A program made the translations under genes and the position numbers. A stretch of 64,000 nt of DNA. Source: a virus (taxonomy: Duplodnaviria > Caudoviricetes). A model generated the notes under the pieces. That model saw only the letters and a list, made by a program, of their open reading frames with translations. It searched no databases and was not told the origin of the DNA. Location: IMG/VR virus record IMGVR_UViG_3300042988_001200; one strand, given 5' to 3'. This document shows, piece after piece, positions 14,221 through 53,415 of the stretch. The stretch's first letter is position 1. Each line of letters begins with the position of its first letter.

Positions 14221-15210
14221 TTAAACAAAGTCAATAACACTAATATAAAGACTAGTTTTTAGAATAACTATAGCTCTGTTATAAAGTCTCCTTACCTCTT
14301 CTATTCCTATATTAAGAGTTTTTGATATAACTCTATAGGATTTATTCTTATTAGTCTCATCTAACCCATAGAATAATTTAATAACTTGTTTCATGTTCTC
14401 CTCTGGAAGTTTATCTATTAGTTTATCTATACACTCTCTTTTATTTACTTTTTCCATATAATTCTCTGGATTATATAAATCATCTTCTGGATGTGGCACT
14501 TTAATAATATCTAATAAGAATATATTTTCATGTTCTGTATTATTTCTAGGAGTATTTAATGAGATTATATTTTCATCTCTTGGTAAACTTTGAATTTCAT
14601 ATAACTTATCTCTAGATAAAATAATGCCTCTTTTTTTACCCTCTTTTATTATCTCCTGTAATAAGGGTTCTCTGTTTAATTCTTTTCTTAAATGTATTAA
14701 TATAGCGTTTATTTGACTATTTAACTTCTTTATATGAACAGGTATTTTTATATTCTTATGTTTATCTATACTATATCTAATACTCTGTTTAATCCAAGGA
14801 GTAGCATAAGTAGATAGTCTAGTCCCTTTATTAATATCAAACTTTTTTATAGCTTGTATTAACCCTATTACACCTTCTTGAATTAAATCCTCTATCCCTA
14901 ATTCACTCTTAAATAAATATCTCTTGGCTATTGATGCTATAAGTCTCTTATTTTTTTCTATTAATTCAACTTTATACTTCTCCTTCTTCCTTATCTCTAA
15001 TATACCCATCCTTAAGATTTCTTTATATAAACTAACTTGTTTTATAAGTATATCTAATCTATTATAAATTAGAATAGATTGATTTATTTCTTTTATAGAT
15101 AGATAGAATATATTAGTTTTAATAGAAAGGTAGTTATCTATAAGTATTAAACTCTTTATTTCTTTTATATGGTTTAACTCCTCTTCAGCCGTTAGTAAAA
15201 ATCTATTCAT
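14221..15210 (-). CDS. RNA polymerase sigma-70 family factor (RpoD/group 2-like)
   Basis: Region 2: NKRLIASIAKRY, DLIQEGVIGLIQAIKKFD..KGTRLSTYATPWIKQSI; region 4 HTH. Confidence 0.92.
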   Translation of the reverse strand: MNRFLLTAEEELNHIKEIKSLILIDNYLSIKTNIFYLSIKEINQSILIYNRLDILIKQVSLYKEILRMGILEIRKKEKYKVELIEKNKRLIASIAKRYLFKSELGIEDLIQEGVIGLIQAIKKFDINKGTRLSTYATPWIKQSIRYSIDKHKNIKIPVHIKKLNSQINAILIHLRKELNREPLLQEIIKEGKKRGIILSRDKLYEIQSLPRDENIISLNTPRNNTEHENIFLLDIIKVPHPEDDLYNPENYMEKVNKRECIDKLIDKLPEENMKQVIKLFYGLDETNKNKSYRVISKTLNIGIEEVRRLYNRAIVILKTSLYISVIDFV

Positions 15211-20871: not shown

Positions 20872-23130
20872 CTAATTGGATGAATGATATATATGTATTT
20901 CTTTATCTTTTATGGTTATATATAAGGTAGATATATCTAAATGAGTAAGAATATAATCTACAAGTAGGTCTTTAATAGAATTAACTATCCTTCCAATTTC
21001 TCTTGCTCCATAATTAAGGTTAATTTTACATGTTATTAAATGGGTGATAACCGAGGGTTCTATCTCTAATTTATACTTAATAGCCTCCTTTAACTCTTCT
21101 AATCTAAGAGCCATAATAGAAGATAAGGATATTAGATTTAATGGATTAGCCGGTAGAATCTCATCTATTCTATTAAGGAACTCTGGTGTAAAGTATTCTT
21201 TAAGAACACTTAACTTATTAGAACTAATATTGGAAGTAGATAGTTCAAACCCCAAAGATGCCGAGTTAGAATAAGAACTCCCTATATTAGTAGTTAAAAA
21301 GATGTATGAATTGTTAAAGTATATCTTTCTACCTACAGAATCTGTAACAAACCCCTCATCTAGTATTTGTAATAGAACATTATAAATAGAGGGATGGGCC
21401 TTTTCTATCTCATCAAATAGGATGATACAGAAGGGGTAGTTCTTTACATTAGAGAAGATAAAAGATTGGTTTTCATAACCAATATACCCAGGAGGAGAGC
21501 CTATAAGTTTAGATATAGAGTGAGATTCCTGAAACTCTGACATATCTATTTGGATAAACTGAGCAGGGTTAGATAGTAATAACTTAGATAATTCTTTAAC
21601 TATATAAGTTTTACCTACCCCTGTATTACCACATAGTAGGAATGAGCCTCTAGGCTTAAGTTTGGAATAAAGGAAACTTCTTTTAATACAAGAGGAGATT
21701 TTATTAATAATATCCTCTTGACCTACTACTCTTTTCCTTAGATTAGACTCTATATCCTTAAACTTATTGTAGGTATCTAAAGGGTTTTTATTAATAGGAA
21801 CTTGAGTTATAGATTCTATAGTTTCATAAACTAAGGACTCATCTAACTCTGGAAGATTAACTATAAACTTCTGTACCTCTTCATACTTATCTTCTTCAAT
21901 AAGAGAATAATACTCCTTTAAATGTTTATTAGGGGTTTTATTCTTTATCTTTAACTTACTACCAGCCTCATCTAGTACATCTATAGCTTTATCTGGATAG
22001 TTCCTATTTGTTATATATTGACTGCTATTAACTATTACCTTAAGGATAGAGTCAGGTACTATCATTCCATGATATCTCTCGTACTTAGTTCTATTTCCTC
22101 TAAGAATCTCTAGAGTCTCTTCCTTACTACATTCTTCTAGAGGGATAATATTAAACCTTCTAGTAAAGGCTTTATCCTTTTCTATATTTAATTTAAACTC
22201 CCTATAGGTAGTAGCACCTATACATTTTAATTCACCTCTACTAAGGGCAGGCTTAAGTAGATTAGATAAATCTAAGGAACCCTCATAGTTACCTAGACCT
22301 ACAATATTATGAATCTCATCTATAAAGAGAATAACGCTAGGATTAGACTTACAGTATTTAATAAGTAGAGCTACTCTCTCTTCTAACTCCCCTCTAAACT
22401 TAGTACCAGATATTAAAGCTCCAGTATCTAAAGATACAATTCTAGTATTGTCTAAAGGAGGGTATATTCCAGATACTACTAATTGAGCTAATCCCTCTAC
22501 TAACTGAGTCTTACCAAAGCCAGCTTCCCCTAGTATAAGAATATTACTCTTAGTCTTTCTTAATAAAGATTTAACTATAGAGTCTAGTTCTTTAGTTCTA
22601 CCTATTAGGGGATCTAGTTCATTCTTCTCAGCTTTTAGAGTTAAATCAATACAGAAGTCTTCAATAGATGTAGGAATAGAGCTAGATACAGTAGTAACTA
22701 ATAAGCCTTCTTGTAGAAGAGTAACAATCTGTTCTTCTATAGCCTTAATATCTACATTAGAGGTAAAGGCTTTTTCAAAGAAGGATAGATTATTATTACT
22801 TTTAAGTACATGAACAAGGGCTAAGAATATAGACTCAGGTTCTATATGCTCTAGATTAAATCTGTTACTTATTTCCTCTGCTTGTTTTAGACATATATGT
22901 ATATACTTAGAATATTGATTAGGGAAAGGATTAAAATTTATTCCTGGAATATTAATTAAATAATTAGTATCTAAGTTATTCTTCTTTAAAATGCTAGATA
23001 TTTTAGAAGACCCTTCTTGTAATAATCCTATAAGTAAATGGTTAAAGCTAACAGAGGTGTTTTGACTATTAGCAATACTCTTAGCTATACTAAGAACCTT
23101 ATCAGAACCTTGAGATAGATTTAGAGACAT
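20872..23130 (-). CDS. clpC: ClpC-type Hsp100 AAA+ ATPase (start revised to ATG 23130)
   Basis: Two Clp-N repeats, LDPLIGR, GEAGFGKT, LFIDEIH, PALSRGE, YPDKAIDVLDEA, GNTGVGKT, IDMSEFQE, GSPPGYIGY, LFDEIEKAHP, SLGF loop. Confidence 0.9.
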   Translation of the reverse strand: MSLNLSQGSDKVLSIAKSIANSQNTSVSFNHLLIGLLQEGSSKISSILKKNNLDTNYLINIPGINFNPFPNQYSKYIHICLKQAEEISNRFNLEHIEPESIFLALVHVLKSNNNLSFFEKAFTSNVDIKAIEEQIVTLLQEGLLVTTVSSSIPTSIEDFCIDLTLKAEKNELDPLIGRTKELDSIVKSLLRKTKSNILILGEAGFGKTQLVEGLAQLVVSGIYPPLDNTRIVSLDTGALISGTKFRGELEERVALLIKYCKSNPSVILFIDEIHNIVGLGNYEGSLDLSNLLKPALSRGELKCIGATTYREFKLNIEKDKAFTRRFNIIPLEECSKEETLEILRGNRTKYERYHGMIVPDSILKVIVNSSQYITNRNYPDKAIDVLDEAGSKLKIKNKTPNKHLKEYYSLIEEDKYEEVQKFIVNLPELDESLVYETIESITQVPINKNPLDTYNKFKDIESNLRKRVVGQEDIINKISSCIKRSFLYSKLKPRGSFLLCGNTGVGKTYIVKELSKLLLSNPAQFIQIDMSEFQESHSISKLIGSPPGYIGYENQSFIFSNVKNYPFCIILFDEIEKAHPSIYNVLLQILDEGFVTDSVGRKIYFNNSYIFLTTNIGSSYSNSASLGFELSTSNISSNKLSVLKEYFTPEFLNRIDEILPANPLNLISLSSIMALRLEELKEAIKYKLEIEPSVITHLITCKINLNYGAREIGRIVNSIKDLLVDYILTHLDISTLYITIKDKEIHIYHSSN

Positions 23131-25178
23131 AGGGATAATAAATCTTCTGGATAGAAACAACTAGATAAACTTAGATTAACCCCATATAGTTCATCACATA
23201 AAGGGATTAGTAATATAGAACCTGGCTTATGAATAGTATTAGTTATTTCATTTATTACTATTTTAATATTAAAACTATTAAGCACCCTTATGATTTCTGG
23301 ATTGTTTATTTCTAATATGCAATATAAGAGTTGAGACATTACAGCTATCTCTATTATGAAATTTCTATTATTAGCCTCATGGTTAGAAGTAATTATCTTA
23401 ATGAAATCCACTTTAGATATATTTATAGAATTATTTATATTAGTAAAATCTTCTATATCTATATCTTGGTTATTTATAAACTCATCTATATGCTCATATA
23501 TAGATATAAGGGATAAAAGCCCTTCACAGATAGACTCTAACTCTTTGTATGAGTCTATATAGAGATTCTGTGTAGCTCTAGTTAAAGCTACATATATTAG
23601 ATTTAGCTCCTGAATATGGTCATTATATTTATTAGTTGGTCTAAATAGAATATCTGCTGAAGGAACTATATACCAGACATTCTTTGCTTCTGCTCCTTTA
23701 GCTCTATGGATAGAACTAAGAATAATAGCATTCTTACTTGGTTTACATAATTCCTCTACATATTTCTCTATATAGGAGACATCTATGTTCTCTTTTATGT
23801 ATAAATATATATACTCTATTAAACTATTACAACAATTAAAGTAGTCTATTAAAGTATCTAAACTAATAGTAAATAGTTCTTTAGAACTTGTATTATTCTG
23901 TTTTATACAATCGTGATTATACTTATAGAAACCACTTAATAAGTTCTTATACTCATTTAAAGAGTACGTTTTATAGTCTTGTAACTTGTTATACTCTAAA
24001 GCTAGTCTAAAGAATCTACTAATAGAGATACTTAAATCTGTACATCTTATATATATCTTCTTACCTTTTGATAATAGTTCTAAGCCATATTCTACTAATG
24101 GATAGTTATATCTACTAACAATAAGGTCTTTACTCTTTACTTTATTAACTATAAATTCTTTATTAAAGCCTTTTACTACACTCCCTTGTTTAGGGTTAGC
24201 GGGTAGCATTTCTATCTTAACTAGTTCTTTAACTAGTTCTATATGACTATCTGGACATCTATAACAATATGAAAGGGGGAGTTGAATAGTATTAAAGCTC
24301 TCTTTCATAATCTTCCAAATAGAAGGTTCAGCTCCTGCAAATGCAAATATAGACTGGTTATAGTCTCCTAATAATATGATTTGACTACCATTATTAGTAA
24401 ATTTCTTATATATCTCTAACATTAATAGAGAGGAATCCTGAGCTTCATCTACTATTAGATAGTCTGTGTGAGTTGGTTCTAGGTTTAAATCAATAGAAAG
24501 TTCTAGTAATTGAGTGAAGTCTAGGATTTTATTATTAGCTTGAGTCCTTCTTAATTGACTAATATATCTAATACATTTACATATAAATTTAATATAAGGA
24601 TTTATATATTCTAACTTTAAGCCATATTTATATATAACAAAGTAGATGTTTTCATAGGTTATAGTTAATCTATTTATTCTTAGATAGTTATCTATTTGTT
24701 TAGTTGCTTGTTTAAATATATTAATATGAACATTAATATCCTTTCTTTCTTGTTTAGTTATATTAGAAGAAGGGTCTATTCTTTCCTTTGTATATATATA
24801 ACTATAAAGTTCTTGATTTAAAGATTCATCTTTAAGGAAGGAATTAACGAACTCTGAAGTCCTATCTTGAATATCTATATCACCTAATACCCTTTTTAAT
24901 AACCCATAACATAGACTATGGATAGTATTTATCCTTACATTATTTAATCCTTTAATCCTTGTATCCTCTTTTAACTGTTCAGCTATATGTTTATTAAAAG
25001 CTAGAATCTGTATCTTTTTACCGCCTAAAGCTCCACATAGACCTATGATTTGAGTAGTTTTACCTACTCCTGCATTAGCATTGACTTGAATATTATTGGT
25101 TAAAGCCTCTTGAAATATAGTTAATTGATGACTATTCCAATTAATAGCAGTTAGATAATTAGAAGTCCAATTATTCAT
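23121..25178 (-). CDS. UvrD/Rep-like superfamily 1 helicase with C-terminal extension
   Basis: NAGVGKTT, LAFN, IVDEAQD, GDYNQSIFAF, SIHRAKGAE, YVALTRA. Confidence 0.88.
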   Translation of the reverse strand: MNNWTSNYLTAINWNSHQLTIFQEALTNNIQVNANAGVGKTTQIIGLCGALGGKKIQILAFNKHIAEQLKEDTRIKGLNNVRINTIHSLCYGLLKRVLGDIDIQDRTSEFVNSFLKDESLNQELYSYIYTKERIDPSSNITKQERKDINVHINIFKQATKQIDNYLRINRLTITYENIYFVIYKYGLKLEYINPYIKFICKCIRYISQLRRTQANNKILDFTQLLELSIDLNLEPTHTDYLIVDEAQDSSLLMLEIYKKFTNNGSQIILLGDYNQSIFAFAGAEPSIWKIMKESFNTIQLPLSYCYRCPDSHIELVKELVKIEMLPANPKQGSVVKGFNKEFIVNKVKSKDLIVSRYNYPLVEYGLELLSKGKKIYIRCTDLSISISRFFRLALEYNKLQDYKTYSLNEYKNLLSGFYKYNHDCIKQNNTSSKELFTISLDTLIDYFNCCNSLIEYIYLYIKENIDVSYIEKYVEELCKPSKNAIILSSIHRAKGAEAKNVWYIVPSADILFRPTNKYNDHIQELNLIYVALTRATQNLYIDSYKELESICEGLLSLISIYEHIDEFINNQDIDIEDFTNINNSINISKVDFIKIITSNHEANNRNFIIEIAVMSQLLYCILEINNPEIIRVLNSFNIKIVINEITNTIHKPGSILLIPLCDELYGVNLSLSSCFYPEDLLSLCL

Positions 25179-25850: not shown

Positions 25851-27227
25851 TTAACTCCTATCTAAGAATTCCTCTCTAGAATCTATGTTTATCTCTTTAT
25901 TCTCTATAAGGTTACTAAGACTATTAGCCCATTGTCTATAGGCTATATGCCCTCCAGGTCTACTTCTTAATCTACTAATATATATAAGTTCCTTTAATCC
26001 TATATCAAATACGTAATAAGTTAAATGACCATTAGGTAATATAAACTTAGATTTATCTGTTATATTATCTTTAATAAAATCATATTGAGAGTTAAATATC
26101 TCTGTATATAATTCCTTAACCTCTGGGATTAAATCTAAGTATGGACATAAAGAATACAGTTCATAGTTAGAACGATTTAGTTCATTATATATATTAAAGG
26201 TTTTATGTAATAAAGGTATAAACTTACCTATTGACCTATGTCTATTTATATCAATTAAGGACCCAATATCTAAATAACCAGTATATAGATCCTTACCAAT
26301 TGTTAGTTCATTAGAACCCTCTTCATATTGATTATATAGATTTATATAAGATATACTCCTTTTAACCACCTCATTCTCATTGTTTATACTTACTCTCTCT
26401 CCTATAGGGCTAATTAATTTAGCTATGTTATCTAATAAACCAATATTCTTTACTCTTATATTTCTATATACTGGCTTATTCACTATAACTAAATCTTTGT
26501 ATATATCTTTTATTAGATTATTTAAATAATCTATATTAGAGTAACCAGTTGTATATTTGATACAAGTCTTAGCTTCTGGAGTATAAGAAGGAGAAGTAAG
26601 GATGGATTCTAGAGTATCTCCCCAAAGAGAAGTTCTATTATCAACCCTTAAGTATTTAATATATTTACTCCATTCTCTAGAAGATTGGATAGCTCCTATA
26701 GAAGTTTTAATAGATAAAGGTAATAGGTATCTAGTACAATCCAAAGTTCTAGCTCTAAGGGCAGAAACTTCCTTAGAGTTATTTAAATCTATATTAAAGT
26801 ATTTAGATAATCCCTCAAAGGTAGGCTGATATAGACGGGTATAGGCTTCTAACCATTTATCAATAATAAAGTTGTATTCAGGTATAGATATAGAGGTGAA
26901 TATAGATTGATATCTAGTAGATCTTTCTTGTCCATCTTGTAGAGGATGATTATAAAAGAACTCAGCAGCATCTAATCTAGTTAACCCCTCTAGGAATATA
27001 TATTGATGAGCTAACCCTCTTACAGAGGAATGACCATACTCATTAACTATCCTTTTTATAACCTCTATACTCTTCTCCTTACTCCTTTCTTCTATAAGGT
27101 CTAATATACTCTTACTACTTCTAGAATAAGAGGCTATAAGAGAGGCATACTCCTCCCCCAACCCCTCTTCATTCTGTAATAAAGTACCTATGATTACTTC
27201 ATTACAAATATTATATTTAAACTTCAT
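25851..27227 (-). CDS. thyX: FAD-dependent thymidylate synthase (long two-domain ThyX/Thy1)
   Basis: YGHSSV, QERSTRY, TRYLLP, second module DINRHRS and RLRSRPGGHIAYR. Confidence 0.85.
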   Translation of the reverse strand: MKFKYNICNEVIIGTLLQNEEGLGEEYASLIASYSRSSKSILDLIEERSKEKSIEVIKRIVNEYGHSSVRGLAHQYIFLEGLTRLDAAEFFYNHPLQDGQERSTRYQSIFTSISIPEYNFIIDKWLEAYTRLYQPTFEGLSKYFNIDLNNSKEVSALRARTLDCTRYLLPLSIKTSIGAIQSSREWSKYIKYLRVDNRTSLWGDTLESILTSPSYTPEAKTCIKYTTGYSNIDYLNNLIKDIYKDLVIVNKPVYRNIRVKNIGLLDNIAKLISPIGERVSINNENEVVKRSISYINLYNQYEEGSNELTIGKDLYTGYLDIGSLIDINRHRSIGKFIPLLHKTFNIYNELNRSNYELYSLCPYLDLIPEVKELYTEIFNSQYDFIKDNITDKSKFILPNGHLTYYVFDIGLKELIYISRLRSRPGGHIAYRQWANSLSNLIENKEINIDSREEFLDRS

Positions 27228-30866: not shown

Positions 30867-31595
30867 ATGATTTATATAATTCCTATAGTCTTCTTTCTTA
30901 TATATGTATGTACTTTTTATTTATTAGATAAAAGGGATAAGGAGCCAATATCTCTTGTGTTATCTATTTGTATATATGGAGCTTTTTCTGCTTTATTTGT
31001 ATGTAGATATATACTTCCAGGAGCTAATTTATTTAATATCTCTTTTGTAGAAGAGACTATAAAGTTTATTATTGTTATAATTCTATTTCACTCTCTGTCT
31101 AAATATGTAAATAACTCTTTTGATTTAATTGTTTATTCATGTTATTCCGCTTTAGGTTTTTCTATAGCGGAATCTCTTTATTATTTATATCTAAACCCTA
31201 GTCTCTCATTGGCTTTATCTAGGTCTATATTTAGCGTTCTTCATTGTATATGGACAACTATATGTGCTTATGGTTTCTCTATATCTGTATCTTTATCTAA
31301 TCCTATATTCTCTATAGTAGGCATTACTCTTGCTATATTCCTTCATACTCTACATAACTACTTAGCCCTCTTTTCCTTTAATTATATATATATCTTTTTC
31401 TTTATACTTCAAGTATTTGCTTTATTTATTATATTTAATAATCTAATAAGTAGAGAGATTAAAATTATATCTCTTTATAAATCTAAGGACTTATCTAACT
31501 CACATATATTAGAAATATATGAGTTAGAACAAAAGAATAAATATATAACTTCTAGATTGAAATATCTATATGCCCTTACCAAATCCCTCCACTGA
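30867..31595 (+). CDS. PrsW-family intramembrane metalloprotease
   Basis: DKRDKEP, VEETIK, LGFSIAE, LHCIW, LHTLHN in a multi-TM protein. Confidence 0.85.
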   Translation: MIYIIPIVFFLIYVCTFYLLDKRDKEPISLVLSICIYGAFSALFVCRYILPGANLFNISFVEETIKFIIVIILFHSLSKYVNNSFDLIVYSCYSALGFSIAESLYYLYLNPSLSLALSRSIFSVLHCIWTTICAYGFSISVSLSNPIFSIVGITLAIFLHTLHNYLALFSFNYIYIFFFILQVFALFIIFNNLISREIKIISLYKSKDLSNSHILEIYELEQKNKYITSRLKYLYALTKSLH

Positions 31596-33582
31596 TAACT
31601 TTTATTTATTAGGTAATGAACAGGATGGTGCTGCCCTGGATATTATTAATAATAAACTTTATATTAGGTCTCATAATTTAAACCAAGCAGTACCTCTTAT
31701 ATATAATCTACCTACCAATTCCATTCCCTTTGGAGTAGATAATATCTCAGAGTATAGAATCCTTACATCTCCTAATAACTCTATTGATATAGATATAACC
31801 CCTACTGAAATACAGTTAAGGAGCTCTTATAGTGCTCCAGCTCTATCTAACGATAAGATATGGGTAGGTAAAGATAACTTACCTACTGAAGTATCTCTTA
31901 TTAGTTCGGATAATAGTGTAGTTATTACACATGGTCTTAATAGTATAGACCTACGTTCTGTTAGTAGTAGTGTTCCTATTCCTGCTCTTAGTTCTAATAA
32001 AGTATGGTTAGGGGTTCTAAATAACCCTACAGAAGTGGCATTTACTAGTGGGGATAACTCTATTTCAATAGGTCTATCCTCTACTTTTATAGATATACGA
32101 GCTGGTTCTTCTCTATCTCAACTTACTAGTCTAACTACTAATTCCCTATGGATGGGTAATAATAGTAATCAACCTATAGAGAAATCTATTACTAGTTCTG
32201 ATAGTTCTATAGTATTTAACCATCTATCTAACTCTTTAGATGTAAGGGTTAGTACCTCTTTATCTCAACTTACTAATCTAACTAGTAATAAGATATGGGT
32301 TGGTTCTACTAATCTACCTACTGAAATGTCTATAGTTAGTTCAGATTCTAGTATAGATATTAATATTGGAACTAATGAAATAGACTTAATAGCTAATGTA
32401 AGTTCTGGATTACCTGCTTTAGAGAGTAATAAAGTATGGCTAGGCATTACTGATATTGCTACTCCAGTAACTCTTAATAGTTCAGATGGGACAGTAGATA
32501 TAGCTCTAAGTCCTACTTCTATTGACTTTAAAGTAGATAATTCAATAGCTAAACTAGCAGGTCTCACTACTAATAAGGTATGGATTGGAGCTTCTAATTT
32601 ACCAGAAGAAAGGGCATTAAGTAGTTCAGATAGCTCTATTAGTATTACTGTAGGACCTACTTCTATTGACTTTACATCTAATGTAAGTTCTGGATTACCC
32701 TCTTTAGATACTAATAAGATATGGCTAGGTGTTACTAATGAGGCTACTCCAGTATTTCTAACTAGCTCAGATGGAACTATAGATATTACTTTAAGTCCTA
32801 CTTCTATAGACTTTAAAGTAGATCCATCTATAATTGAATTAACTAGTTTAACTAATAATAAGTTATGGTTAGGGGTTACTAATCTACCTACAGAGGTAGG
32901 GTTAACTAGTTCAGATAACTCTATTATTATTACTATGGGAGCTACTGAAATAGATTTAGTAGCTAATATAACTCCTGAACTACCTACTTTAGATACTGGA
33001 AAAGTATGGATTGGTGATATTAATGTACCAACTAGTAAGACTTTAACCAGCTCTGATGGGAGTCTAGATATAACTAATGGAGTTGATTTAGATATTAAAG
33101 TTAGTGATTCAATAGTTAGACTAGGTAGCTTAACTACTAATAAAATATGGGTTGGGGTCTCAGATTTACCAGAAGAAAGGTCCTTAATTAGTTCAGACAG
33201 TAGTGTTGATATAAGTATTGGGGCTAGTTCTATAGATATTAAGAGTAGAGATAAGGGTTTGTTATATAGAACTGTGATATTTAGTGATACAGGTTCTATT
33301 AATCTAGGTACTTTACCCCCTAAATCTTCTATTAGTCATATAAGTATTCAGGTAACAGAGGCGTTTGATGGTACTACTAACTTTGTATTAGGAGATACTA
33401 TTAATAATAACTTATATCTAACAACTGATGACTTTGTTCTTAATACTATAGGAGTTCTATATCTATTTCCTAATAGTATTATCCCTACTATAGTTAATAC
33501 TGATTTAATACTTACTTACTCTAATACTGGTACTACTGAGGGCTCCTTTGTTATCTGTGTTTACTATAATACTAGTCTATAA
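31570..33582 (+). CDS. Repeat-rich virion fibre-like protein (10 repeats of about 47 aa)
   Basis: Ten L..nKxWxG..N.P.E..l.SSDxSI.I....ID units. Confidence 0.7.
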   Translation: MPLPNPSTDNFYLLGNEQDGAALDIINNKLYIRSHNLNQAVPLIYNLPTNSIPFGVDNISEYRILTSPNNSIDIDITPTEIQLRSSYSAPALSNDKIWVGKDNLPTEVSLISSDNSVVITHGLNSIDLRSVSSSVPIPALSSNKVWLGVLNNPTEVAFTSGDNSISIGLSSTFIDIRAGSSLSQLTSLTTNSLWMGNNSNQPIEKSITSSDSSIVFNHLSNSLDVRVSTSLSQLTNLTSNKIWVGSTNLPTEMSIVSSDSSIDINIGTNEIDLIANVSSGLPALESNKVWLGITDIATPVTLNSSDGTVDIALSPTSIDFKVDNSIAKLAGLTTNKVWIGASNLPEERALSSSDSSISITVGPTSIDFTSNVSSGLPSLDTNKIWLGVTNEATPVFLTSSDGTIDITLSPTSIDFKVDPSIIELTSLTNNKLWLGVTNLPTEVGLTSSDNSIIITMGATEIDLVANITPELPTLDTGKVWIGDINVPTSKTLTSSDGSLDITNGVDLDIKVSDSIVRLGSLTTNKIWVGVSDLPEERSLISSDSSVDISIGASSIDIKSRDKGLLYRTVIFSDTGSINLGTLPPKSSISHISIQVTEAFDGTTNFVLGDTINNNLYLTTDDFVLNTIGVLYLFPNSIIPTIVNTDLILTYSNTGTTEGSFVICVYYNTSL

Positions 33583-33584
33583 AT

Positions 33585-36500
33585 ATGACAACTTATTATA
33601 TCTCTCCCACTGGCTCTTCTAATGGTTTATCTATTAATAATCCCTCCTCATACTCGACTATCTATCCCTCTCTAATAGAAGGGGATGAACTTATATTTCT
33701 ACCAGGTAAGTATAGATTAAATCTACTTATAGATAAACAAATAACTAGCAATAATACTTATATAACTTATAGTTCTCTAAGGAATCAGGCTAATACTCAG
33801 TTCCTAGAGACCTATACAGATATATCTCAGAAGGGTGTTATTGTATCTAAACCCTCTACTATCTATGAAGAGGCTATTATTACTGGATGTGAAATTCTTA
33901 ACCAAGTCTGGACTAATGTATCTGGATTCATATGGAAGACTAATATAACTCTTCCATATGCTAAGGGGTCTAATCAAATATTCTATAAGGATGTTCCTCT
34001 AGTAGAAGCTAGATATCCCTCTATCTCTAATCTAGAAGAGGAAATATATCATACATCCTATCTAATATCTATAGCAGGCTCTATTAATGAATCAGATGTT
34101 AATGCTGATGGATATCTATGTACCTACTCTAATACCTCTCTATCTTCATTCCCTGATAACTTCTGGAATGGTCATAGTATAACCCTTCTCCCTGGAAAGG
34201 AGTGGAGGGGTTATATCGGTAAGGTAATAAGTAATATAGGTAGTACCCTAACTTTTAGATTTCAATGGCCCTCTACCTCCCATTCAGCTCAAGCTGCTAA
34301 ACCAGAGGCTGATGATTTATTCTATCTATGGGGCTCTTTAGATACATCTCTACTTACTCCTAATAGTTATATATATGACTCTAATACCCAAGAGTTATAT
34401 ATCTATCTCCCTGATAATAAAGATCCTAATACCTGTGCTATTGGGGAAATAGAGTATAAAGCTAGATTATATGGATTAGAGTATTCAGGGGTTGTTACAG
34501 GTACTAACTCTGCTATTAGATTGGAAGGGCTAAAGTTCTTTAGTTGTGCTCTTCGTACTACTAATGATAGTAGTGGTCTTAATACTAAATACTGTGACTT
34601 TAATTATCTGACTCTAGGTTATGAAGGTACTATAGCTGGATTTGTATTAAGAGGTTCCTCTGGACTTATAGAGAGTTGTAACTGGTATGTAGCTGGTAGT
34701 AATGGATTAGAATTAAGGGGTAATGGGCATAAGGTTATTAATAATACATTCAATAAGATATCTATTAGACCTACCTCTACGCATAGTATTATTTGTTATC
34801 CAGATGTATTAGATGACCAGGGTTATAGTCTATTTGCTAACTCTGTATGGGACTTTAGTGCGTGGGGTATTGAATGTAAATATAAGCGTTCGGTCATTAA
34901 TTATAACAACTCTAATCAAGGAGGGGTTTCCTTTAATAGAGTATGGAATGGAAGTAATTGTCTATCAGATACTTCCTTTATAGGGTCCTGGGATGCAGGA
35001 GACCATAATGGTCTAGTTATCTCCTTTAATATATGCCATGACTCTAAGGATAGAAGGAATATTACTAGTCTATTTAGATTGGATTCAGGAGGGGGTAAAG
35101 GATGTTGGAATGCTGTATTCCACTCTAATATTGCCTATAACTGTAGGAACTTTAATAGTTCTATGTCTATATGGGGCCTTCTACCCTCTCAATATAATGG
35201 AGATTTAAATATAGATGTATATAACAATACAATCTGGGGTGGATTAACTATAGAAAAAGGTTCTGATACTACTAGACAATTCACTGGTATAGATATACAA
35301 AGGAATATACTTGTAGACTTTGTACCTTTAGTTTCAACTACTCACACTCTTTTAGATAATGATATTCTTAAGGCTTCTTATCTTAATAATGTACAAGTAG
35401 ACCCAGATATAGGTCTTACCTATTGTGACTTTAGACCCTCATATACTAGCTCTATCACTAACACTAGTGCTATAGCTGGTAACTTTAGTACCTCATATAA
35501 GGGAGCTGTTGTTCCTACTATTGTATCTAGTAATTTAGAAAGTCTATACCAGGCTTACCCATTTATCAATGTACCCTTTGTATCAACAGGTGCTTATTGT
35601 GTAGAAGCTATTCACTGGAATGATATAGAAGTAGAACAACTAACTCAATATCCTAATGTAGTTAAAATAACAGGATTACCTAAAGGTAGGACCCTTCCTC
35701 CTCTATGTAACTTATATCTAGGTAGTTCTATATATCTAACTAGATATGAAACAGTAGATGATGATGGTTATTTCACTATATGGTACGTTCTACCATTCTC
35801 TAGTACCTCCCAACCTTTATATCTATCTATAGGAGGTTTCTATGAGGGATGGAAGGATACTAAAGGGGCTTTAATAAACCTTAATCTATCTATAATCACT
35901 CAACCATCTATAACCTTTACTTCATATCTAGAGGGCACTCTAACTCTTAATACTAAGTCCCTATCTCTAGGGAATAAAACAATTATTCCTTTAGCTGTAT
36001 CAGCCCTCCAATGGGTAAATATAAACTCTAACCCTGTATATATACAAGTCCCTAAAAGCTCTATAGTAGGTTCTCTACATAACTATTTAGTTAAGGACTA
36101 TCAAGATAGAACTCTTAACTCCTGGATAGATAGAGAAACCTCTACTGATTATTACCTATGGATATCTCTAGTAGACACCTCTATAAGAAGAAATAATTCT
36201 CTTATAGACTATTCTCTATATCTAGAACTTTCTAATACTTATGTACCTCATAATAATGTAAATGAGATATTCCCCTCCTTTGGTCTATCTAGCTTTAAGA
36301 TATGGCTATCCCCTGATTCTATAAATAGAACAGGTAACTCTATTACCTCTTGGACTAATAAAGGACTCGCTGGTGGTACTTTTAACCTATCCACTCCATC
36401 TACTCTTGATTATGTCTCTACTGGATTAAACTCTATACCAGGAGCCTCCTTCTCTGGAGATGATAGATTACTCCCATCTAATATGGGACCTATAGATACA

Positions 36501-38543
36501 GATTTATATGTAGGTATAGTTGTATATAGAAACCCAGACCCAGGGGCTATTAGAAACCAAAGGATACTTTCTAGTGCTCTTACTGGTAATGACTACTCTA
36601 GTGGTATATATGTCATACCAGATAACACCTCTGGAGATGTAATAGCCTATCCCTCTGGTAAGTCTAAATTAGTTACATCTTCCTATGTGGCTAACCCCAC
36701 TAATCTAACTCTAGGGGGTAACTATAGTAATACTAATGCTAACTATAAAGGAGAGTTATATGAGTTAATAATCTGGGATAAACCTATAACTCCCTCTCAA
36801 AGAAACCCTATCTTAGATAACTACATTCAACCTAAATACTTTAATAACAACATAACTCTAGACCCTGAACCTAATCCCTCATTGGGCTCCTTTAACTTCC
36901 CTGTATATATAGATGGAGTTCTATATCCAGGGATTCATATAGTTCAGTCACCTATAACCAACTCTCAATCTACATTTACTCTTACTAACCTACCTCCTCT
37001 ATCAGAGGGGAATCACTCAGTATCTATTAAAGCCCCTTCTGGCTTTATTAATAACTTCTCATCCTCCTACTCCTCCTATGACTTCTCCTTTAACTACTCC
37101 TATCAAATATTTATTATGACTCGTATAACTAACCTTATAGGTACTATTACTGATAGATGGTCTATTAAATCTAAGGTTATTAAAGATAATTCTACTAACC
37201 TCTCCTTTACTGACCTCTCTAACCAACCTACCCCTATTAACTCTAAGGTTACTAATAACCGTATAGTTATTGGTAATAGCAATAATGAAATGGTGGAGGT
37301 AGACCCTAGTACATTATTTATTACACCTAGTTCTACAGTAGATGGAGATATAGAGGGTACTTTATCTACACTTAGTATTAAGACTAATAGTGTTACAGAT
37401 AATAAGCTGGGTAATAGAACATTAGACCAGAATATAGGGACTACAGCTTCTAATACTGGAACCCTTACTTCTTTATTATCCTGGTTAGTAAAGCATGTTA
37501 AGTCCATATTAGGGACTACTAACTGGTATGATGCTCCTCCTACTAATCTAACAACTGTATCCTCTCATTTATCTAATACTAGTAACCCACATGGAGTTAC
37601 TGGGGCTCAATTAGGATTAGGTTCTATTAGTGTACAAAATAGTGATGCTGTAACTATTACAGGAGGTTCTATTACTGGAGTAACTTCATTCTTATCATCT
37701 TCTAATCCATTAGTATCTGGTACTGCTAGTGCAGGTACATCCAGTCTAGCTAGTAGAGAGGACCATGTTCACCCTGTACCCTCTGCTAGTTCTATTAATA
37801 CTTATCTAGGACAGATAGCCGGGTTATCTCCATCTAGTAATAGTATTATCTACTTTAATGGTTCTTCCTGGGTTGTAGATAGTATATTAAGTCATATGAA
37901 TAGGGTTACAGCTACTAATATTATCTTTATAGATGACCATTTCATATGTGGGAGTGTTGCTAGTAATAATGGTTGGACTACTACTAGTAGCGCTGGGAGT
38001 TCTAGTTTAATTAATAGTGAAGCTGGTCGACCAGGGTTAATACAAATATTTAATAATAGTGGGGGTACAGGTAGTGCTTGTTTAGGTACTAACTTCACGA
38101 ATGGTACAGCTAGTGTATTCCTTAATACCACTTCTACTACTCTATCTATCACTAGTAGGATTCAGACCCTATCTGCTACAGGAGAAGAGTTTGAAGTTAG
38201 ACTAGGGTTCTTTGATTCTGGTATAGGTTCTATTAATAATGGTGCTTACTTTATAGCTGACCCTACTAGTAACTTCTGGAGATGTATATATGCTATTGGT
38301 GGCTCTTCTACTACTTATACTACTACTGTAGCTCTAGGTACTATATGGAATAAGTTTACTATTAATATAACTAATGGGGGATTAAACACTGATTGGTTAA
38401 TTAATGATGTAGTAGTAGCTTCTCATACGGTAGGTAGTGGTCTATCTACTGGAGTAGGATTTGGTACTTGTATTAGAAAGACTGTTGGTACTGCTCAAAG
38501 ATATGTATATATTGATAGATATACTCTATATCAACTACCTTAA
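33585..38543 (+). CDS. Giant receptor-binding/tail-fibre protein with N-terminal right-handed beta-helix and LamG-like lectin region
   Basis: TYYISPTG..GLSINNP, Asn/Gly-rich parallel beta-helix repeats, WLSPD..W..K and ELIIWD (LamG-like), fibre motif LLSWLVKHVKSILGTTNWYDAP, HLSNTSNPHGVT. Confidence 0.7.
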   Translation: MTTYYISPTGSSNGLSINNPSSYSTIYPSLIEGDELIFLPGKYRLNLLIDKQITSNNTYITYSSLRNQANTQFLETYTDISQKGVIVSKPSTIYEEAIITGCEILNQVWTNVSGFIWKTNITLPYAKGSNQIFYKDVPLVEARYPSISNLEEEIYHTSYLISIAGSINESDVNADGYLCTYSNTSLSSFPDNFWNGHSITLLPGKEWRGYIGKVISNIGSTLTFRFQWPSTSHSAQAAKPEADDLFYLWGSLDTSLLTPNSYIYDSNTQELYIYLPDNKDPNTCAIGEIEYKARLYGLEYSGVVTGTNSAIRLEGLKFFSCALRTTNDSSGLNTKYCDFNYLTLGYEGTIAGFVLRGSSGLIESCNWYVAGSNGLELRGNGHKVINNTFNKISIRPTSTHSIICYPDVLDDQGYSLFANSVWDFSAWGIECKYKRSVINYNNSNQGGVSFNRVWNGSNCLSDTSFIGSWDAGDHNGLVISFNICHDSKDRRNITSLFRLDSGGGKGCWNAVFHSNIAYNCRNFNSSMSIWGLLPSQYNGDLNIDVYNNTIWGGLTIEKGSDTTRQFTGIDIQRNILVDFVPLVSTTHTLLDNDILKASYLNNVQVDPDIGLTYCDFRPSYTSSITNTSAIAGNFSTSYKGAVVPTIVSSNLESLYQAYPFINVPFVSTGAYCVEAIHWNDIEVEQLTQYPNVVKITGLPKGRTLPPLCNLYLGSSIYLTRYETVDDDGYFTIWYVLPFSSTSQPLYLSIGGFYEGWKDTKGALINLNLSIITQPSITFTSYLEGTLTLNTKSLSLGNKTIIPLAVSALQWVNINSNPVYIQVPKSSIVGSLHNYLVKDYQDRTLNSWIDRETSTDYYLWISLVDTSIRRNNSLIDYSLYLELSNTYVPHNNVNEIFPSFGLSSFKIWLSPDSINRTGNSITSWTNKGLAGGTFNLSTPSTLDYVSTGLNSIPGASFSGDDRLLPSNMGPIDTDLYVGIVVYRNPDPGAIRNQRILSSALTGNDYSSGIYVIPDNTSGDVIAYPSGKSKLVTSSYVANPTNLTLGGNYSNTNANYKGELYELIIWDKPITPSQRNPILDNYIQPKYFNNNITLDPEPNPSLGSFNFPVYIDGVLYPGIHIVQSPITNSQSTFTLTNLPPLSEGNHSVSIKAPSGFINNFSSSYSSYDFSFNYSYQIFIMTRITNLIGTITDRWSIKSKVIKDNSTNLSFTDLSNQPTPINSKVTNNRIVIGNSNNEMVEVDPSTLFITPSSTVDGDIEGTLSTLSIKTNSVTDNKLGNRTLDQNIGTTASNTGTLTSLLSWLVKHVKSILGTTNWYDAPPTNLTTVSSHLSNTSNPHGVTGAQLGLGSISVQNSDAVTITGGSITGVTSFLSSSNPLVSGTASAGTSSLASREDHVHPVPSASSINTYLGQIAGLSPSSNSIIYFNGSSWVVDSILSHMNRVTATNIIFIDDHFICGSVASNNGWTTTSSAGSSSLINSEAGRPGLIQIFNNSGGTGSACLGTNFTNGTASVFLNTTSTTLSITSRIQTLSATGEEFEVRLGFFDSGIGSINNGAYFIADPTSNFWRCIYAIGGSSTTYTTTVALGTIWNKFTINITNGGLNTDWLINDVVVASHTVGSGLSTGVGFGTCIRKTVGTAQRYVYIDRYTLYQLP

Positions 38544-42155: not shown

Positions 42156-42308
42156 TTAATGAACAATTATTAGCTTAATAAGATTACCAAATGGACCAGA
42201 TAGAGTTACTAATTCTAAGAATAGTAGACTAATAAACCCTATCATTGCTAATCTTCCATTCACTAATTCAGCAGTATTATCAAATATAAATCTAGGTTTA
42301 ATCTTCAT
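42156..42308 (-). CDS. hli: High-light-inducible protein (HliP); not in ORF track
   Basis: MKIKPRFIFDNTAELVNGRLAMIGFISLLFLELVTLSGPFGNLIKLIIVH contains the chlorophyll-binding ExxNGRxAMxG motif. Confidence 0.92.
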   Translation of the reverse strand: MKIKPRFIFDNTAELVNGRLAMIGFISLLFLELVTLSGPFGNLIKLIIVH

Positions 42309-42443: not shown

Positions 42444-42872
42444 CTAAACTCCTAGTTTACAGATAATAGAGGAAGGAATCTGGTAATTAATAAGAGTCTT
42501 TACAGTATTCCAATTACCCCCTCCTAGACCACAACCTATTTTATAAGGGATATAAACTTTAAGATTTAACTCTTGGGCTATTTCATTAACTAACCCTAAT
42601 CCTTTAGATAGAGCTTTATAGTCTGTATGTATCCCTGTATTACCATAGGTATTTTGCCCAATTAGAGATACTATTACTAGGCTCTCTATTCTAGTAGTAA
42701 TAATATCTCCCATTTCTAGATTACCTACTTGTGATTTATAATCTATTTCTACTTGAGGATATTTAGTTTTAATGGATAAAGCTAGACCTTTACCCATTAC
42801 TCCTTGTTTATTAACCTGATGGACGATGATTCCTTCTTTAATGTCTAAGATATTCTTCTCTATGATTTCCAT
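42444..42872 (-). CDS. Macrodomain protein (ADP-ribose processing)
   Basis: NIL...IVHQVN..GVMGKGLA..IK.KYP...PYKIGCGLGGGNW. Confidence 0.88.
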   Translation of the reverse strand: MEIIEKNILDIKEGIIVHQVNKQGVMGKGLALSIKTKYPQVEIDYKSQVGNLEMGDIITTRIESLVIVSLIGQNTYGNTGIHTDYKALSKGLGLVNEIAQELNLKVYIPYKIGCGLGGGNWNTVKTLINYQIPSSIICKLGV

Positions 42873-43204
42873 TAAAGACCTTTTATTAATTGGATATAAC
42901 CTTTATTTAATTGAATATAGTTGTTTAGAATTGTATTTAGTAACTCTATAAGTTGCTCTTTAGAGGCTCTATCTATACAACTTTCAAAGGTTTCTTTTAT
43001 ATCTTTATCTTCAGTATTCTCATAGAATTTACCTATACTCTTAACAAAGTATATTATCTTTAGCTTCCTATTCTCTCTATAATAGTTCTCTAAAGTCTCA
43101 ATTACTAATTGTTTTAAATCCTCTCTATTAAGATTTCTGGCCTTTAAATTATATGAAGCAATCTTAAACTGCTCTTCTAAAGTGAGATTTAAGGTAGATT
43201 CCAT
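42872..43204 (-). CDS. nblA: NblA-like phycobilisome degradation adaptor, tandem two-unit fusion
   Basis: Unit 1 LTLEEQFKIASY...LNREDLKQLVI; unit 2 F...IDRASKEQLIELL..I..YIQLIKG. Confidence 0.7.
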   Translation of the reverse strand: MESTLNLTLEEQFKIASYNLKARNLNREDLKQLVIETLENYYRENRKLKIIYFVKSIGKFYENTEDKDIKETFESCIDRASKEQLIELLNTILNNYIQLNKGYIQLIKGL

Positions 43205-47354: not shown

Positions 47355-47927
47355 TTATGGGTTTTTACATGTTGAAATAAAGAACTTGGGAGATACTTCT
47401 CTTGTTAACCATACGGTTTTAGGCTTTGTCTCCCAAAATAATAACCCCTCCTCTTGCATTAATTTACTGTTAATACTAACTATATAACTAGGTAAATTAA
47501 CTTTTCTACCATTTCTATCTCCTATTTGTCTGGCTGATTCTCTCTTAGTAGAAAGGTGAACTAGATATCTGGATATAGGTAATATACCTTTTTCTTTTAT
47601 ATCTTTAACTCTATCTTCGGTTAATCCGTGATATAAAATAGGGGGTGGAGTTTTAGGTTTATCTAATATTGGATAAGGAAAACTATGACCATAACAAGCT
47701 CTAATAATAGTGTTATTCCTTTCAAATCTCTTATTATTCTTAATGAAACTGGTTATATCCTCACTAGTTATATCTTCTAAACCTATAATCTCATTAATTA
47801 ATTTAGTAACTTCTTGTACATTAAACCACCCTCCCTCATTAGTTTTATTACCACAGTGTCTTAATATATAACATAAAGATTTAGATAACTTAGTTAATTT
47901 AGTTTTAGTAGCATCTTTAATTGTCAT
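47355..47927 (-). CDS. kptA: RNA 2'-phosphotransferase (Tpt1/KptA)
   Basis: SKSLCYILRH, KRFE, IRACYGHS, LYHG, R.LVHLS, VWLT..V.P. Confidence 0.9.
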   Translation of the reverse strand: MTIKDATKTKLTKLSKSLCYILRHCGNKTNEGGWFNVQEVTKLINEIIGLEDITSEDITSFIKNNKRFERNNTIIRACYGHSFPYPILDKPKTPPPILYHGLTEDRVKDIKEKGILPISRYLVHLSTKRESARQIGDRNGRKVNLPSYIVSINSKLMQEEGLLFWETKPKTVWLTREVSPKFFISTCKNP

Positions 47928-50856: not shown

Positions 50857-53415
50857 TTAAGTCTCTAATTGTTTACATCTAGAACAGAGTTTAGTAGATT
50901 GATTATTAACAATAGTCTCATATAAATCCACCTTATTCCAACATCTAGGACATTTATTCTTCTCGCTTAAGGAGATTGAAAGTTCATTAATAGAGATAGA
51001 AAATAACAATTCACTTACTCCTAGATAGCAACTGATAAGTTCTTTAGAGAGGTTATCTAGAGATAAAGTCTGTACTAAATCAATAGGGAACTCTACCTTT
51101 AAATCTAGTTTAGACTTAGCCTCTTTATTAGTTTTATACCTTTCAAAGGTAAGATTCACTTCATCTCTAGTGGGGTTAAGAGTATTAAAATCATAGACTT
51201 GTTCTAGAAGATTAAATTCTACAGGGTTCTCTAGAAGGTTAGAGTCTAGATAAATACTAGTTTCATTTACTAGACTAGGACAAATGGGTTCTAATACTTT
51301 AATAAAACCCTGGAGTAAATAGAAAAGAACATATTGACATCCTACCCTTTCATTACTATTAATGCCATCAATATATAATCTATCCTTAGAAAGATTACTA
51401 TAAGAAGACATAATCCTCTTTAATTCTTGTATTGAATTGATAACTAAATGAAAGTTATAGTAGTTATACTCCTCATTACAGGACTTTAATTCTTCATTAA
51501 ACTGTTGAATAATGAAGTTATCTAGAGGAGTATAGAAACTAGAAGGATAATTAGAAGGTTTAAAGTCTTTAATATTACCCAGAATGAATTTAATAATGTT
51601 CCTAAAGTCATTATATAGAGACACCATTTGAGTTTCTACTGTCTCTGATAAGATAATATCTTTAGTGAAGTCTTGGTTTAGAACTAGTAATCTTAAGATA
51701 TCAGAGGAATAAGTCTTTAATAAATCTAGGGGATTAGTAACATTACCCTTAGATTTACTCATCTTATTACCCCTTTCATCTAGAGTAAATCCATGTACTA
51801 GTAGTTTAGAGAAGGGAATCTGTTCCTTTAGTGCATAGGTGATAATTAAAGATGATTGGAACCATCCTCTATATTGGTCTACTCCTTCAATAAAGATAGT
51901 TTCTAATGGAATAGATTCCTCTTTAGTTTGATATAAATAGACACATCCACTGTCAAACCATACATCTAAGACATCCTCTCCCTTATGACAATGGGGAATA
52001 TTAGTAAACTCTTCTACTGGTAAATCCCACCATAGGTCCATATAATCCTCTACTAAGTCTTTATACTCATTAATCTTAGATAGAAAACTATCAATAACCA
52101 TATGGACTTTACCCTTACTATCAATGACATAAGGAATGGGAATACCCCACTTCCTTTGTCTAGAAATACACCATTCCTCTCTAGAAGAGATAGTGTTGGA
52201 TAGAGCTTTCTTAGCTTGTAAAGGATGAAACTCTACATTCTCTAACTCTTTAATTACAGATTCCTTAATTGAATTGATATCTAAGAACCATTGAGCTGTG
52301 GGTCTAATGTATACAGGATTCTCGGTTCTCTCATCAAAGAAGGTTTTAATTACTTGTTTAGAACAATGCAAAATAGAATCATTATTAAGGATAATAAACT
52401 CTGATAATTCCTCTGGAGTATATTTAAAGTCTTCATATTCAATATAACCCCCTGTTTTATGGAATAAATCCTTTACTTCTAGACCATTAACTAAGCCTAA
52501 ATTATAATCATCAAACCCATGAGAGGGGTTAATATGAACAATACTTGTACCTACAGAGTCTGTAACTAGACTATTAGCCTCAATAACCTTACAAATATCT
52601 CCATTTAAATTAGTATAAGTATGGTATTTAGATAATAGTTCTGACCCCTTAACCTTCTCTAAAAGAATAGAATCCCCAAATAAATTATTAAATTCCTCAT
52701 AGAATTTAATATTAGAGATGTAATGAAGGTTCCCTCTAGAGTAAATATAATACTCAATCTCAGAGTTAATAGCTAGAGCTTTATTTCCTAATAAAGTCCA
52801 AGGAGTAGTAGTCCAAGCAATATAATAGATATTATCATTGGCTGTACTATTAACTTTGAACTTTACATATGCAGTATTAACTTCTACTTCCTTATAGATA
52901 ATCTCTGACTCAGCTAGTGCTGTCCTATTCTTAATACTCCAATAAGTAGGCTTATTACCTCTGTAGATTAATTCTTTATTGTATAACTCTTGGAGAATAC
53001 TTAGTTCATATAACTGGAACTCATTATCTAAAGTTCTATAAGTATTACTATAGTTAATCCCTAGTTTAGTTAAGGATTCCTTATGCTGCTCTACAGTTTT
53101 TAAAGCTAGTTGTCTACAGTTATTTCTAGTCTCTAAAGGATTAGCACTCCTCTTTACCTTTAACTCAATGGGTAATCCATGACAATCCCATCCAGCAATA
53201 AACTCTTTATATAAACTGTCCTGACCATTCCTTCTATTAATTACATCCTTAATAGTTTTATTAAGAAGATGACCCATATGAAGATTACCATTAGCATATG
53301 GGGGTCCATCAATGATTAATACAGACCCCTTTTTATTAGATTGGATAGAAGGGTTAAAATCATGCCCTTTATAATAACTAGGAAACTGAGTTTCTGGTTT
53401 TAGAATATTAAACAT
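50857..53415 (-). CDS. ileS: Isoleucyl-tRNA synthetase (type 1)
   Basis: DGPPYANG.LHMGH, GWDCHGLPIE, WTTTPWTL, WCISRQRKWG, DVWFDSG, EGVDQYRGWFQSS, KMSKS, C-terminal CPRCW...CSRC. Confidence 0.96.
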   Translation of the reverse strand: MFNILKPETQFPSYYKGHDFNPSIQSNKKGSVLIIDGPPYANGNLHMGHLLNKTIKDVINRRNGQDSLYKEFIAGWDCHGLPIELKVKRSANPLETRNNCRQLALKTVEQHKESLTKLGINYSNTYRTLDNEFQLYELSILQELYNKELIYRGNKPTYWSIKNRTALAESEIIYKEVEVNTAYVKFKVNSTANDNIYYIAWTTTPWTLLGNKALAINSEIEYYIYSRGNLHYISNIKFYEEFNNLFGDSILLEKVKGSELLSKYHTYTNLNGDICKVIEANSLVTDSVGTSIVHINPSHGFDDYNLGLVNGLEVKDLFHKTGGYIEYEDFKYTPEELSEFIILNNDSILHCSKQVIKTFFDERTENPVYIRPTAQWFLDINSIKESVIKELENVEFHPLQAKKALSNTISSREEWCISRQRKWGIPIPYVIDSKGKVHMVIDSFLSKINEYKDLVEDYMDLWWDLPVEEFTNIPHCHKGEDVLDVWFDSGCVYLYQTKEESIPLETIFIEGVDQYRGWFQSSLIITYALKEQIPFSKLLVHGFTLDERGNKMSKSKGNVTNPLDLLKTYSSDILRLLVLNQDFTKDIILSETVETQMVSLYNDFRNIIKFILGNIKDFKPSNYPSSFYTPLDNFIIQQFNEELKSCNEEYNYYNFHLVINSIQELKRIMSSYSNLSKDRLYIDGINSNERVGCQYVLFYLLQGFIKVLEPICPSLVNETSIYLDSNLLENPVEFNLLEQVYDFNTLNPTRDEVNLTFERYKTNKEAKSKLDLKVEFPIDLVQTLSLDNLSKELISCYLGVSELLFSISINELSISLSEKNKCPRCWNKVDLYETIVNNQSTKLCSRCKQLET

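Follow-up and report, generated by a model that had tools for sequence, protein, structure and literature searches.

Two NblA-like units in one 110-residue protein of a large virus that probably infects freshwater cyanobacteria

The window analysed here is a 64,000-nucleotide stretch of a virus of the Caudoviricetes (Duplodnaviria; IMG/VR record IMGVR_UViG_3300042988_001200) with a G+C content of 25-34%, and the gene under study is a minus-strand open reading frame (ORF) at positions 42872-43204 whose 110-residue product, designated P0001, resembles two copies of NblA in tandem. NblA is the small adaptor that delivers the cyanobacterial light-harvesting antenna to a protease; its monomer is a helix-loop-helix of about 60 residues, and the functional dimer forms a four-helix bundle. 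It is found in cyanobacteria that bear phycobilisomes, in red-algal plastids, and in their viruses. The P0001 frame begins with an ATG at 43204, ends with a TAA at 42874-42872, and sits within a long series of minus-strand genes; its upstream neighbour is an uncharacterised gene of 165 codons, the stop of which lies 8 nucleotides (nt) before the P0001 start. The gene and its parts are as follows.

42872-43204, minus strand: tandem NblA-like ORF P0001, 110 amino acids (ORF list and translation; Pfam PF04485)
43031-43204, minus strand: unit 1 (residues 1-58), predicted NblA helix 1 and loop followed by half of helix 2 (its first half), with a diverged C-terminal part (match to 3cs5, our own profiles, AlphaFold2)
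42875-43030, minus strand: unit 2 (residues 59-110), predicted short helix 1 lacking the N-terminal motif, then a loop and a full helix 2 ending in L-x-K (hhalign, our own profiles, AlphaFold2)
43166-43186, minus strand: LTLEEQF, residues 7-13 of unit 1, counterpart of the NblA motif L-S-L-E-Q-x-F (translation, alignment to consensus positions 7-13)
42881-42898, minus strand: YIQLIK, residues 103-108 of unit 2 (translation, profile alignment to Y48-x-x-L51-L52-K53)

Against the Pfam NblA family, whole P0001 scored 30.7 bits (E 4.5e-7; cut-off 25) over two stretches, the better of which aligned residues 6-39 with profile positions 1-34 of 50. By themselves, residues 1-55 scored 23.3 bits, and the cut-off was passed only by the sum of the two stretches. 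The closest solved structure was NblA of Synechococcus elongatus (3cs5; residues 6-40, E 0.0023), followed by that of Anabaena (1ojh). Two further NblA profile hidden Markov models were built from 95 and 108 cyanobacterial and viral NblAs; the underlying collection comprised Microcystis phage Ma-LMM01 and its relatives, copies on cyanobacterial plasmids, 80 genomic loci, 30 from a Pfam search of 401 cyanobacterial genomes, and 21 IMG/VR loci. Both models reported two domains in P0001, with residues 1-36/40 on profile positions 1-36/40 and residues 72-108 on positions 17-53, and each half also scored by itself (12.3 and 14.6 bits for unit 1; 12.0 and 15.5 bits for unit 2). Because composition-preserving shuffles almost never reached the real scores (2 of 20,000 for unit 1 and 1 of 20,000 for unit 2), and because natural controls did not approach them (1,212 segments of 52 residues from other proteins of the window, maximum 8.5 bits; 855 such segments from other loci, maximum 6.8 bits; 1,425 ORFs from 23 unrelated phage loci, maximum 7.4 bits), the two-unit pattern is beyond chance. 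In a six-frame scan of the window, P0001 was the sole NblA-profile match.

The second unit was also selected by hhalign against a seven-sequence NblA alignment, which picked residues 70-108 (P 2.6e-4 for the whole protein and 4e-5 for residues 59-110 alone) and matched them to the columns running from the end of helix 1 through the L-L-K motif. In pairwise comparisons with the single NblAs of the 108-sequence set, the best E-values were 1e-6 for unit 1 and 5e-4 for unit 2, and one viral NblA (L127) was matched by both units. Among the best matches of unit 1 in the same set was the NblA of a second viral locus, L125 (E 4.7e-6); this contig (IMGVR_UViG_3300042340_000379, 207,855 bp) is jumbo-sized and has a single-domain NblA. 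The profile ranges of the two halves overlap, both covering positions 17-40, and the arrangement is therefore a duplication rather than one NblA with an insert; a single NblA interrupted by an insertion was ruled out on this ground. An internal self-alignment of residues 26-46 with residues 81-101 has an offset of 55, and the two profile alignments imply the same value. At the level of sequence comparison, these results confirm the observation of an earlier, sequence-only reading of this DNA, made without database searches, that the 110-residue ORF consists of two NblA-like units.

The variation found among related contigs argues that P0001 is translated as one constrained frame spanning both units. 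M1 is the only methionine of the protein, which leaves no ATG from which the second half could be started separately. The protein is identical on four contigs from separate assemblies (the longest of 204 kb), near-identical variants occur in contigs of runs from two other studies, and an 870-nt contig of another study covers the entire ORF with no indels; the identical protein on the four contigs and the independent 870-nt contig rule out an assembly artefact that fused two genes. The variants differ at nine positions, of which six are synonymous (codons 5, 33, 55, 59, 89, and 90) and three are non-synonymous (R23I, L88I, and T91K). Given a synonymous-site fraction of 0.188, this corresponds to P 0.002 and a ratio of non-synonymous to synonymous change (dN/dS) of ∼0.12, statistics drawn from small counts and in part from shallow contigs. 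A single constrained frame is favoured because synonymous changes exceed non-synonymous ones and indels are lacking. The public runs listed as holding the phage DNA included no RNA dataset.

The sequence motifs that define NblA are distributed between the two halves. The LTLEEQF motif of unit 1 has no counterpart in unit 2, where residues 59-71 fail to align to the profile. Unit 2 has S81-K-E-Q-L, which aligns with the NblA loop and the start of helix 2, and YIQLIK (Y103-K108), which ends two residues short of the C-terminus and places L106 and K108 on L51 and K53 of Nostoc PCC 7120 NblA. Unit 1 no longer aligns past residue 40, and the ungapped equivalents of L51 and K53 there are I51 and F53. 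The alignments thus bear out what the sequence-only reading had seen by eye (LTLEEQF kept in unit 1, the loop/helix motif and YIQLIK kept in unit 2), and they support a complementary retention in which the N-terminal motif persists only in unit 1 and L-x-K only in unit 2. The roles which that reading assigned to the motifs also agree with the literature: a passage of PMC4103541 that cites Karradt 2008 gives ClpC as the partner of the N-terminal motif of NblA and phycobiliproteins as that of the C-terminal one, and the legend of Extended Data Fig. 8 in PMC12695635 assigns phycobiliprotein binding to L51 and K53 of Nostoc PCC 7120 NblA. From the pattern of retained motifs we infer a possible division of labour between the halves of P0001.

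The fold of P0001 was also modelled. AlphaFold2, run on the single sequence of P0001, gave a mean predicted local distance difference test (pLDDT) of 67.6 and a predicted template modelling score (pTM) of 0.60, and placed helices at residues 9-23, 27-44, 50-57, 66-77, and 82-99, which together would form two helix-loop-helix units; the loops, at residues 24-26 and 78-81, are again offset by 55. When the two halves were co-folded as separate chains, they scored 0.44 as compared to 0.00 for the best control, a result that the tool rates as weak support; 51 of 78 solved complexes reach that mark, as do 2 of 108 mismatched pairs, and the range up to and including 0.60 holds only 5 of the 78 solved complexes as passes, together with all four mismatches that pass (of 180, with harder ones counted). 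The co-fold runs agreed in at least 81% of contacts, with a partner pLDDT of at least 71; the pass may itself stem from likeness to solved NblA dimers. An ESM Atlas structure search ranked a red-algal NblA cluster first (template modelling score 0.74 by target). Foldseek of the model against the PDB returned no match at E 0.001 or better, the best hits of a wide VIA-align search were generic helical proteins (best Z 6.4) with NblA not listed, and an ESM Atlas feature search with residues 59-110 gave no usable match. A four-helix, dimer-like NblA fold from one chain had been predicted from the letters alone; the two predicted helix-loop-helix units and the co-fold result speak weakly for it, whereas the pLDDT and the failure of Foldseek and VIA-align to single out NblA do not, and we regard a pseudo-dimer fold as plausible on the models.

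The fused form was sought widely. Residues 1-58 alone, used as a query for homologues, returned only P0001 itself, as did pattern and protein searches of IMG/VR, and tblastn against phages and plasmids gave chance-level matches only. A scan of genome contigs with the Ma-LMM01 NblA as query had no match, PF04485 had no match in Microcoleus phage My-WqHQDG, and no NblA was found in 23 IMG/VR loci carrying distant helicase relatives. No fused NblA was found among the matches listed from the 401 cyanobacterial genomes, all of which were single, in frames of 56-142 amino acids. Likewise, 117 of 117 NblA ORFs in the loci fetched were single-domain, as were all 21 IMG/VR NblA loci (frames of 61-94 amino acids) and all 78 Ma-LMM01-type proteins (65-85 amino acids). 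Tandem, fused, or two-domain NblAs were not mentioned in the literature searched. The sole named look-alike of P0001 came from the ESM Atlas, a cluster in which 50 viral proteins of ∼113 amino acids are grouped, 18% of them with PF04485 (score 0.76), and which we take as a lead only; it hints that double-length NblA-like proteins may not be unique to this phage, and such proteins may constitute a wider, unrecognised phage family. As judged by its sequence, P0001 would be a diverged, fused NblA variant, and the fused form was found nowhere else in the sets examined.

The neighbourhood of P0001 and the remainder of the window bear on the host and on possible partners of the protein, and the following genes are relevant.

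42444-42872, minus strand: Macro-domain gene (DarG-like ADP-ribosyl glycohydrolase; Pfam Macro 30 bits, NCBIfam DarG macrodomain 58.8 bits)
42156-42308, minus strand: high-light-inducible protein (HLIP), 50 amino acids, chlorophyll a/b-binding-like (Pfam PF00504, 23.1 bits; cut-off 22.3)
20872-23160, minus strand: ClpC-like Hsp100 unfoldase, 762 amino acids (Pfam AAA_2, AAA, AAA_lid_9, ClpB_D2-small, and Clp_N)
14221-15210, minus strand: sigma-70 factor
25851-27227, minus strand: 458-residue protein whose first 200 residues contain a ThyX domain
30867-31595, plus strand: PrsW-family intramembrane protease
31570-33582, plus strand: 670-residue protein with no Pfam match and marginal PHROG matches only
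33585-38543, plus strand: 1652-residue protein with no Pfam match and marginal PHROG matches only
47355-47927, minus strand: Tpt1/KptA RNA 2'-phosphotransferase
50857-53415, minus strand: isoleucyl-tRNA synthetase (IleRS)

A class II ribonucleotide reductase and a UvrD-type helicase are also encoded in the window. The HLIP gene lies two genes downstream of P0001, its translation contains the motif E-x-x-N-G-R-x-A-M-x-G-F, and it would be a marker of a cyanobacterial host. The helicase adjacent to P0001 is closest to that of Microcoleus phage My-WqHQDG (35%) and then to that of Microcystis phage Ma-LMM01 (30%), the latter a carrier of nblA; on this basis the phage is a distant relative of myoviruses that infect Microcoleus and Microcystis. 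A cyanobacterial host is likely because of the HLIP gene and this helicase kinship. The ClpC-like unfoldase, ∼20 kb from P0001, has an N-domain, two AAA+ modules, and a short middle region; its best solved relatives, ClpC of Staphylococcus aureus and Bacillus subtilis, align with it starting at the N-domain (E 1e-131), and its second AAA+ module contains an LGF tripeptide ('SASLGFELS'). On these features it is a possible partner of P0001.

The Macro gene immediately follows P0001, its ATG overlapping the P0001 stop by one base (TAATG). Through this overlap its start is translationally coupled to P0001; we treat it as a neighbour, and its product, which resembles the macrodomain of the antitoxin DarG, may serve as a counter-defence against DarT-type ADP-ribosylation. 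Comparable neighbours occur on cyanobacterial plasmids: in Nostoc sp. C057 (locus L009) nblA adjoins a macro-domain gene, as in the phage, and in Chroococcidiopsis (locus L006) it adjoins a chlorophyll a/b-binding/HLIP gene, a neighbour type also seen here. Linkage of nblA with macro-domain and HLIP genes may thus be recurrent.

P0001 shares with known NblAs (PF04485; Nostoc PCC 7120, 1OJH; Synechococcus elongatus, 3CS5) the elements L-x-L-E-x-Q-F, [SN]-[RK]-E-[DQ]-L, and Y-x-x-L-[LI]-K; helix-loop-helix units, as predicted, and a presumed role as adaptor between ClpC and phycobiliproteins would be further points in common. It departs from them in its length (110 as compared to ∼60 amino acids), in carrying both repeats on a single chain where known NblAs pair two chains as a dimer, in having each motif once rather than twice per functional unit, and in being very diverged (22 bits against an NCBIfam equivalog cut-off of 100). 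Two different NblA units are known or proposed to work together elsewhere: in Synechocystis PCC 6803 as the NblA1/NblA2 heterodimer (bioRxiv 10.1101/494369; Baier et al. 2014, cited in PMC7966870), and in an uncultured marine cyanophage as the G1/G1b pair, for which joint action is a proposal (bioRxiv 10.1101/494369). Unlike these pairs, which are separate genes and chains, the units of P0001 are fused in one frame that has no internal start codon and is kept in strain variants. Single-domain phage NblAs are known from Ma-LMM01, MaMV-DC, and S-TIP37, all of them from phages of phycobilisome-bearing cyanobacteria, and from IMG/VR contigs. P0001 resembles them in being virus-encoded, in a phage with a distant helicase relationship to Ma-LMM01, but its gene lies between the helicase block and the Macro and HLIP genes, whereas nblA of Ma-LMM01 lies between nrdA and nrdB.

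On balance we lean toward the view that P0001, encoded by a large freshwater cyanophage, is a proteolysis adaptor with two NblA-like repeats in a single chain, bridging ClpC and phycobiliproteins. Each repeat of ∼55 residues would be a diverged NblA helix-loop-helix, and the repeats probably pack on each other in the manner of two NblA monomers in the normal dimer. Residues 7-13 of repeat 1 would contact a ClpC-type unfoldase, either that of the host or the phage's own, and L106 and K108 of repeat 2 would contact host phycobiliproteins. Bridging of this kind during infection would lead to Clp-dependent degradation of the antenna, releasing amino acids and reducing light capture. Viral NblAs whose activity has been tested work in this manner (PMC12695635, PMC9602691). 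In the NblA dimer of 1OJH the two hairpins are antiparallel; if those of P0001 were likewise antiparallel, the two surviving motifs would stand at opposite tips of the bundle, and the diverged segment of residues 45-65 would be a linker crossing it. For P0001, a dimer-like fold, the partners that it binds, and an ability to cause bleaching are what we infer. The interpretation offered by the sequence-only reading, a covalent dimer with its two jobs split between the halves, is partly supported, in its two-unit architecture and its complementary motifs. A more elaborate scheme, in which a polar single-chain NblA, one end binding ClpC and the other phycobiliproteins, and the phage ClpC-like unfoldase, attached to host ClpP by way of the LGF loop, would make up a self-contained kit for demolishing the antenna, is offered as a tentative and rather doubtful extension.

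A number of results weigh against reading P0001 as a two-repeat antenna adaptor. Pfam reports no NblA in residues 56-110 alone, where only sub-threshold matches to RabGAP-TBC and DUF3231 appear; the NCBIfam NblA equivalog (NF045916) matches residues 6-38 only, with 22 bits against its cut-off of 100; our own profiles consist mostly of Nostocales sequences; and unit 1 and unit 2 do not align significantly with each other (score 33, shuffle p ∼0.1). Whole-protein homologues were absent from 5.8 billion clusters and from an exhaustive phmmer search of 1.84 billion representatives, which yielded only P0001 itself or near-identical strains. The AlphaFold2 model is of moderate confidence overall and of low confidence at residues 48-61 and 102-110, the latter including the L-x-K motif. 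The phage DNA is present in subsurface and freshwater-sediment metagenomes in addition to freshwater. The two NblA profile matches anticipated by the sequence-only reading were obtained with Pfam on the whole protein (as two stretches) and with our own profiles (as two domains), but not with Pfam on residues 56-110 alone or with NCBIfam. Because P0001 misses the NCBIfam equivalog cut-off, it is a diverged, fused NblA variant rather than a canonical member. The same results could also be taken to mean that residues 1-58 are a single NblA domain followed by an unrelated helical tail, with the likeness of residues 72-108 reflecting convergence among amphipathic helices: the best Pfam and NCBIfam matches are confined to residues 6-39, unit 2 alone has no Pfam NblA match, the direct alignment of the units is not significant, and the structure searches are non-specific, including the fruitless ESM Atlas feature search of residues 59-110. 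We find such a tail decidedly unlikely, as unit 2 alone reaches 12.0-15.5 bits on two profiles, a level attained by a single shuffle in 20,000 and by no natural control (at most 8.5 bits), and it is matched independently by hhalign (P 4e-5) and pairwise by individual viral NblAs (E 5e-4, 108 sequences). The match runs from the S-K-E-Q loop to the C-terminal Y-x-x-L-I-K in the register of the 55-residue period, and the Pfam score of the whole protein is ∼7 bits above that of unit 1 alone.

Still less credible, and in our judgement very improbable, is the suggestion that P0001 is unrelated to NblA, an orphan phage protein, small and helical, with borderline profile matches that arose by chance. 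The empty homologue searches, a Pfam score just 5.7 bits above threshold, and the presence of the phage in subsurface and sediment samples would fit it; however, the likeness of unit 1 to solved NblAs extends across 35 residues that include the signature motif, unit 1 also matches single cyanobacterial NblAs at E 1e-6 (108 sequences), both halves match NblA independently in a protein that is the only such match in the window, and the cyanophage context agrees with NblA. A different function for a genuine tandem NblA is easier to entertain, though unlikely: the protein might have been retargeted as an adaptor or regulator of the phage ClpC-like unfoldase for substrates other than phycobilisomes, or it might be a decoy, tying up host ClpC or phycobiliproteins but not promoting degradation. 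That the phage has its own ClpC-like protein with an LGF loop, that the divergence of P0001 from every NblA is large (NCBIfam equivalog score of 22 bits), and that a single copy of each motif is left would be consistent with either role. Moreover, the phage NblA G1b alone did not complement bleaching (bioRxiv 10.1101/494369), and expression of a viral NblA also led to cleavage of non-antenna proteins (PMC12695635). Nevertheless, the nearby HLIP gene points to manipulation of the photosynthetic apparatus, and every phage NblA that has been tested for activity degrades pigment proteins (PMC12695635, PMC9602691).

An asymmetric NblA would be of use beyond this phage. NblA is a key switch for dismantling the cyanobacterial antenna, and to our knowledge the bridging of ClpC and phycobiliproteins by the symmetric NblA dimer has been modelled but not resolved. 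With one copy of each motif, P0001 would be a natural asymmetric construct that permits direct tests of the stoichiometry and polarity of the adaptor. If the self-contained demolition kit were true, a single site for ClpC and a single site for phycobiliproteins would suffice in each NblA unit, and the protein would show which job belongs to each end. Viral NblAs depress oceanic photosynthesis (PMC12695635). Profile searches tuned to proteins of ∼60 amino acids can under-call viral NblAs that are diverged or fused. In fresh water, the occurrence of P0001 alongside a phage ClpC-like unfoldase suggests that some jumbo cyanophages may supply both the adaptor and the motor.

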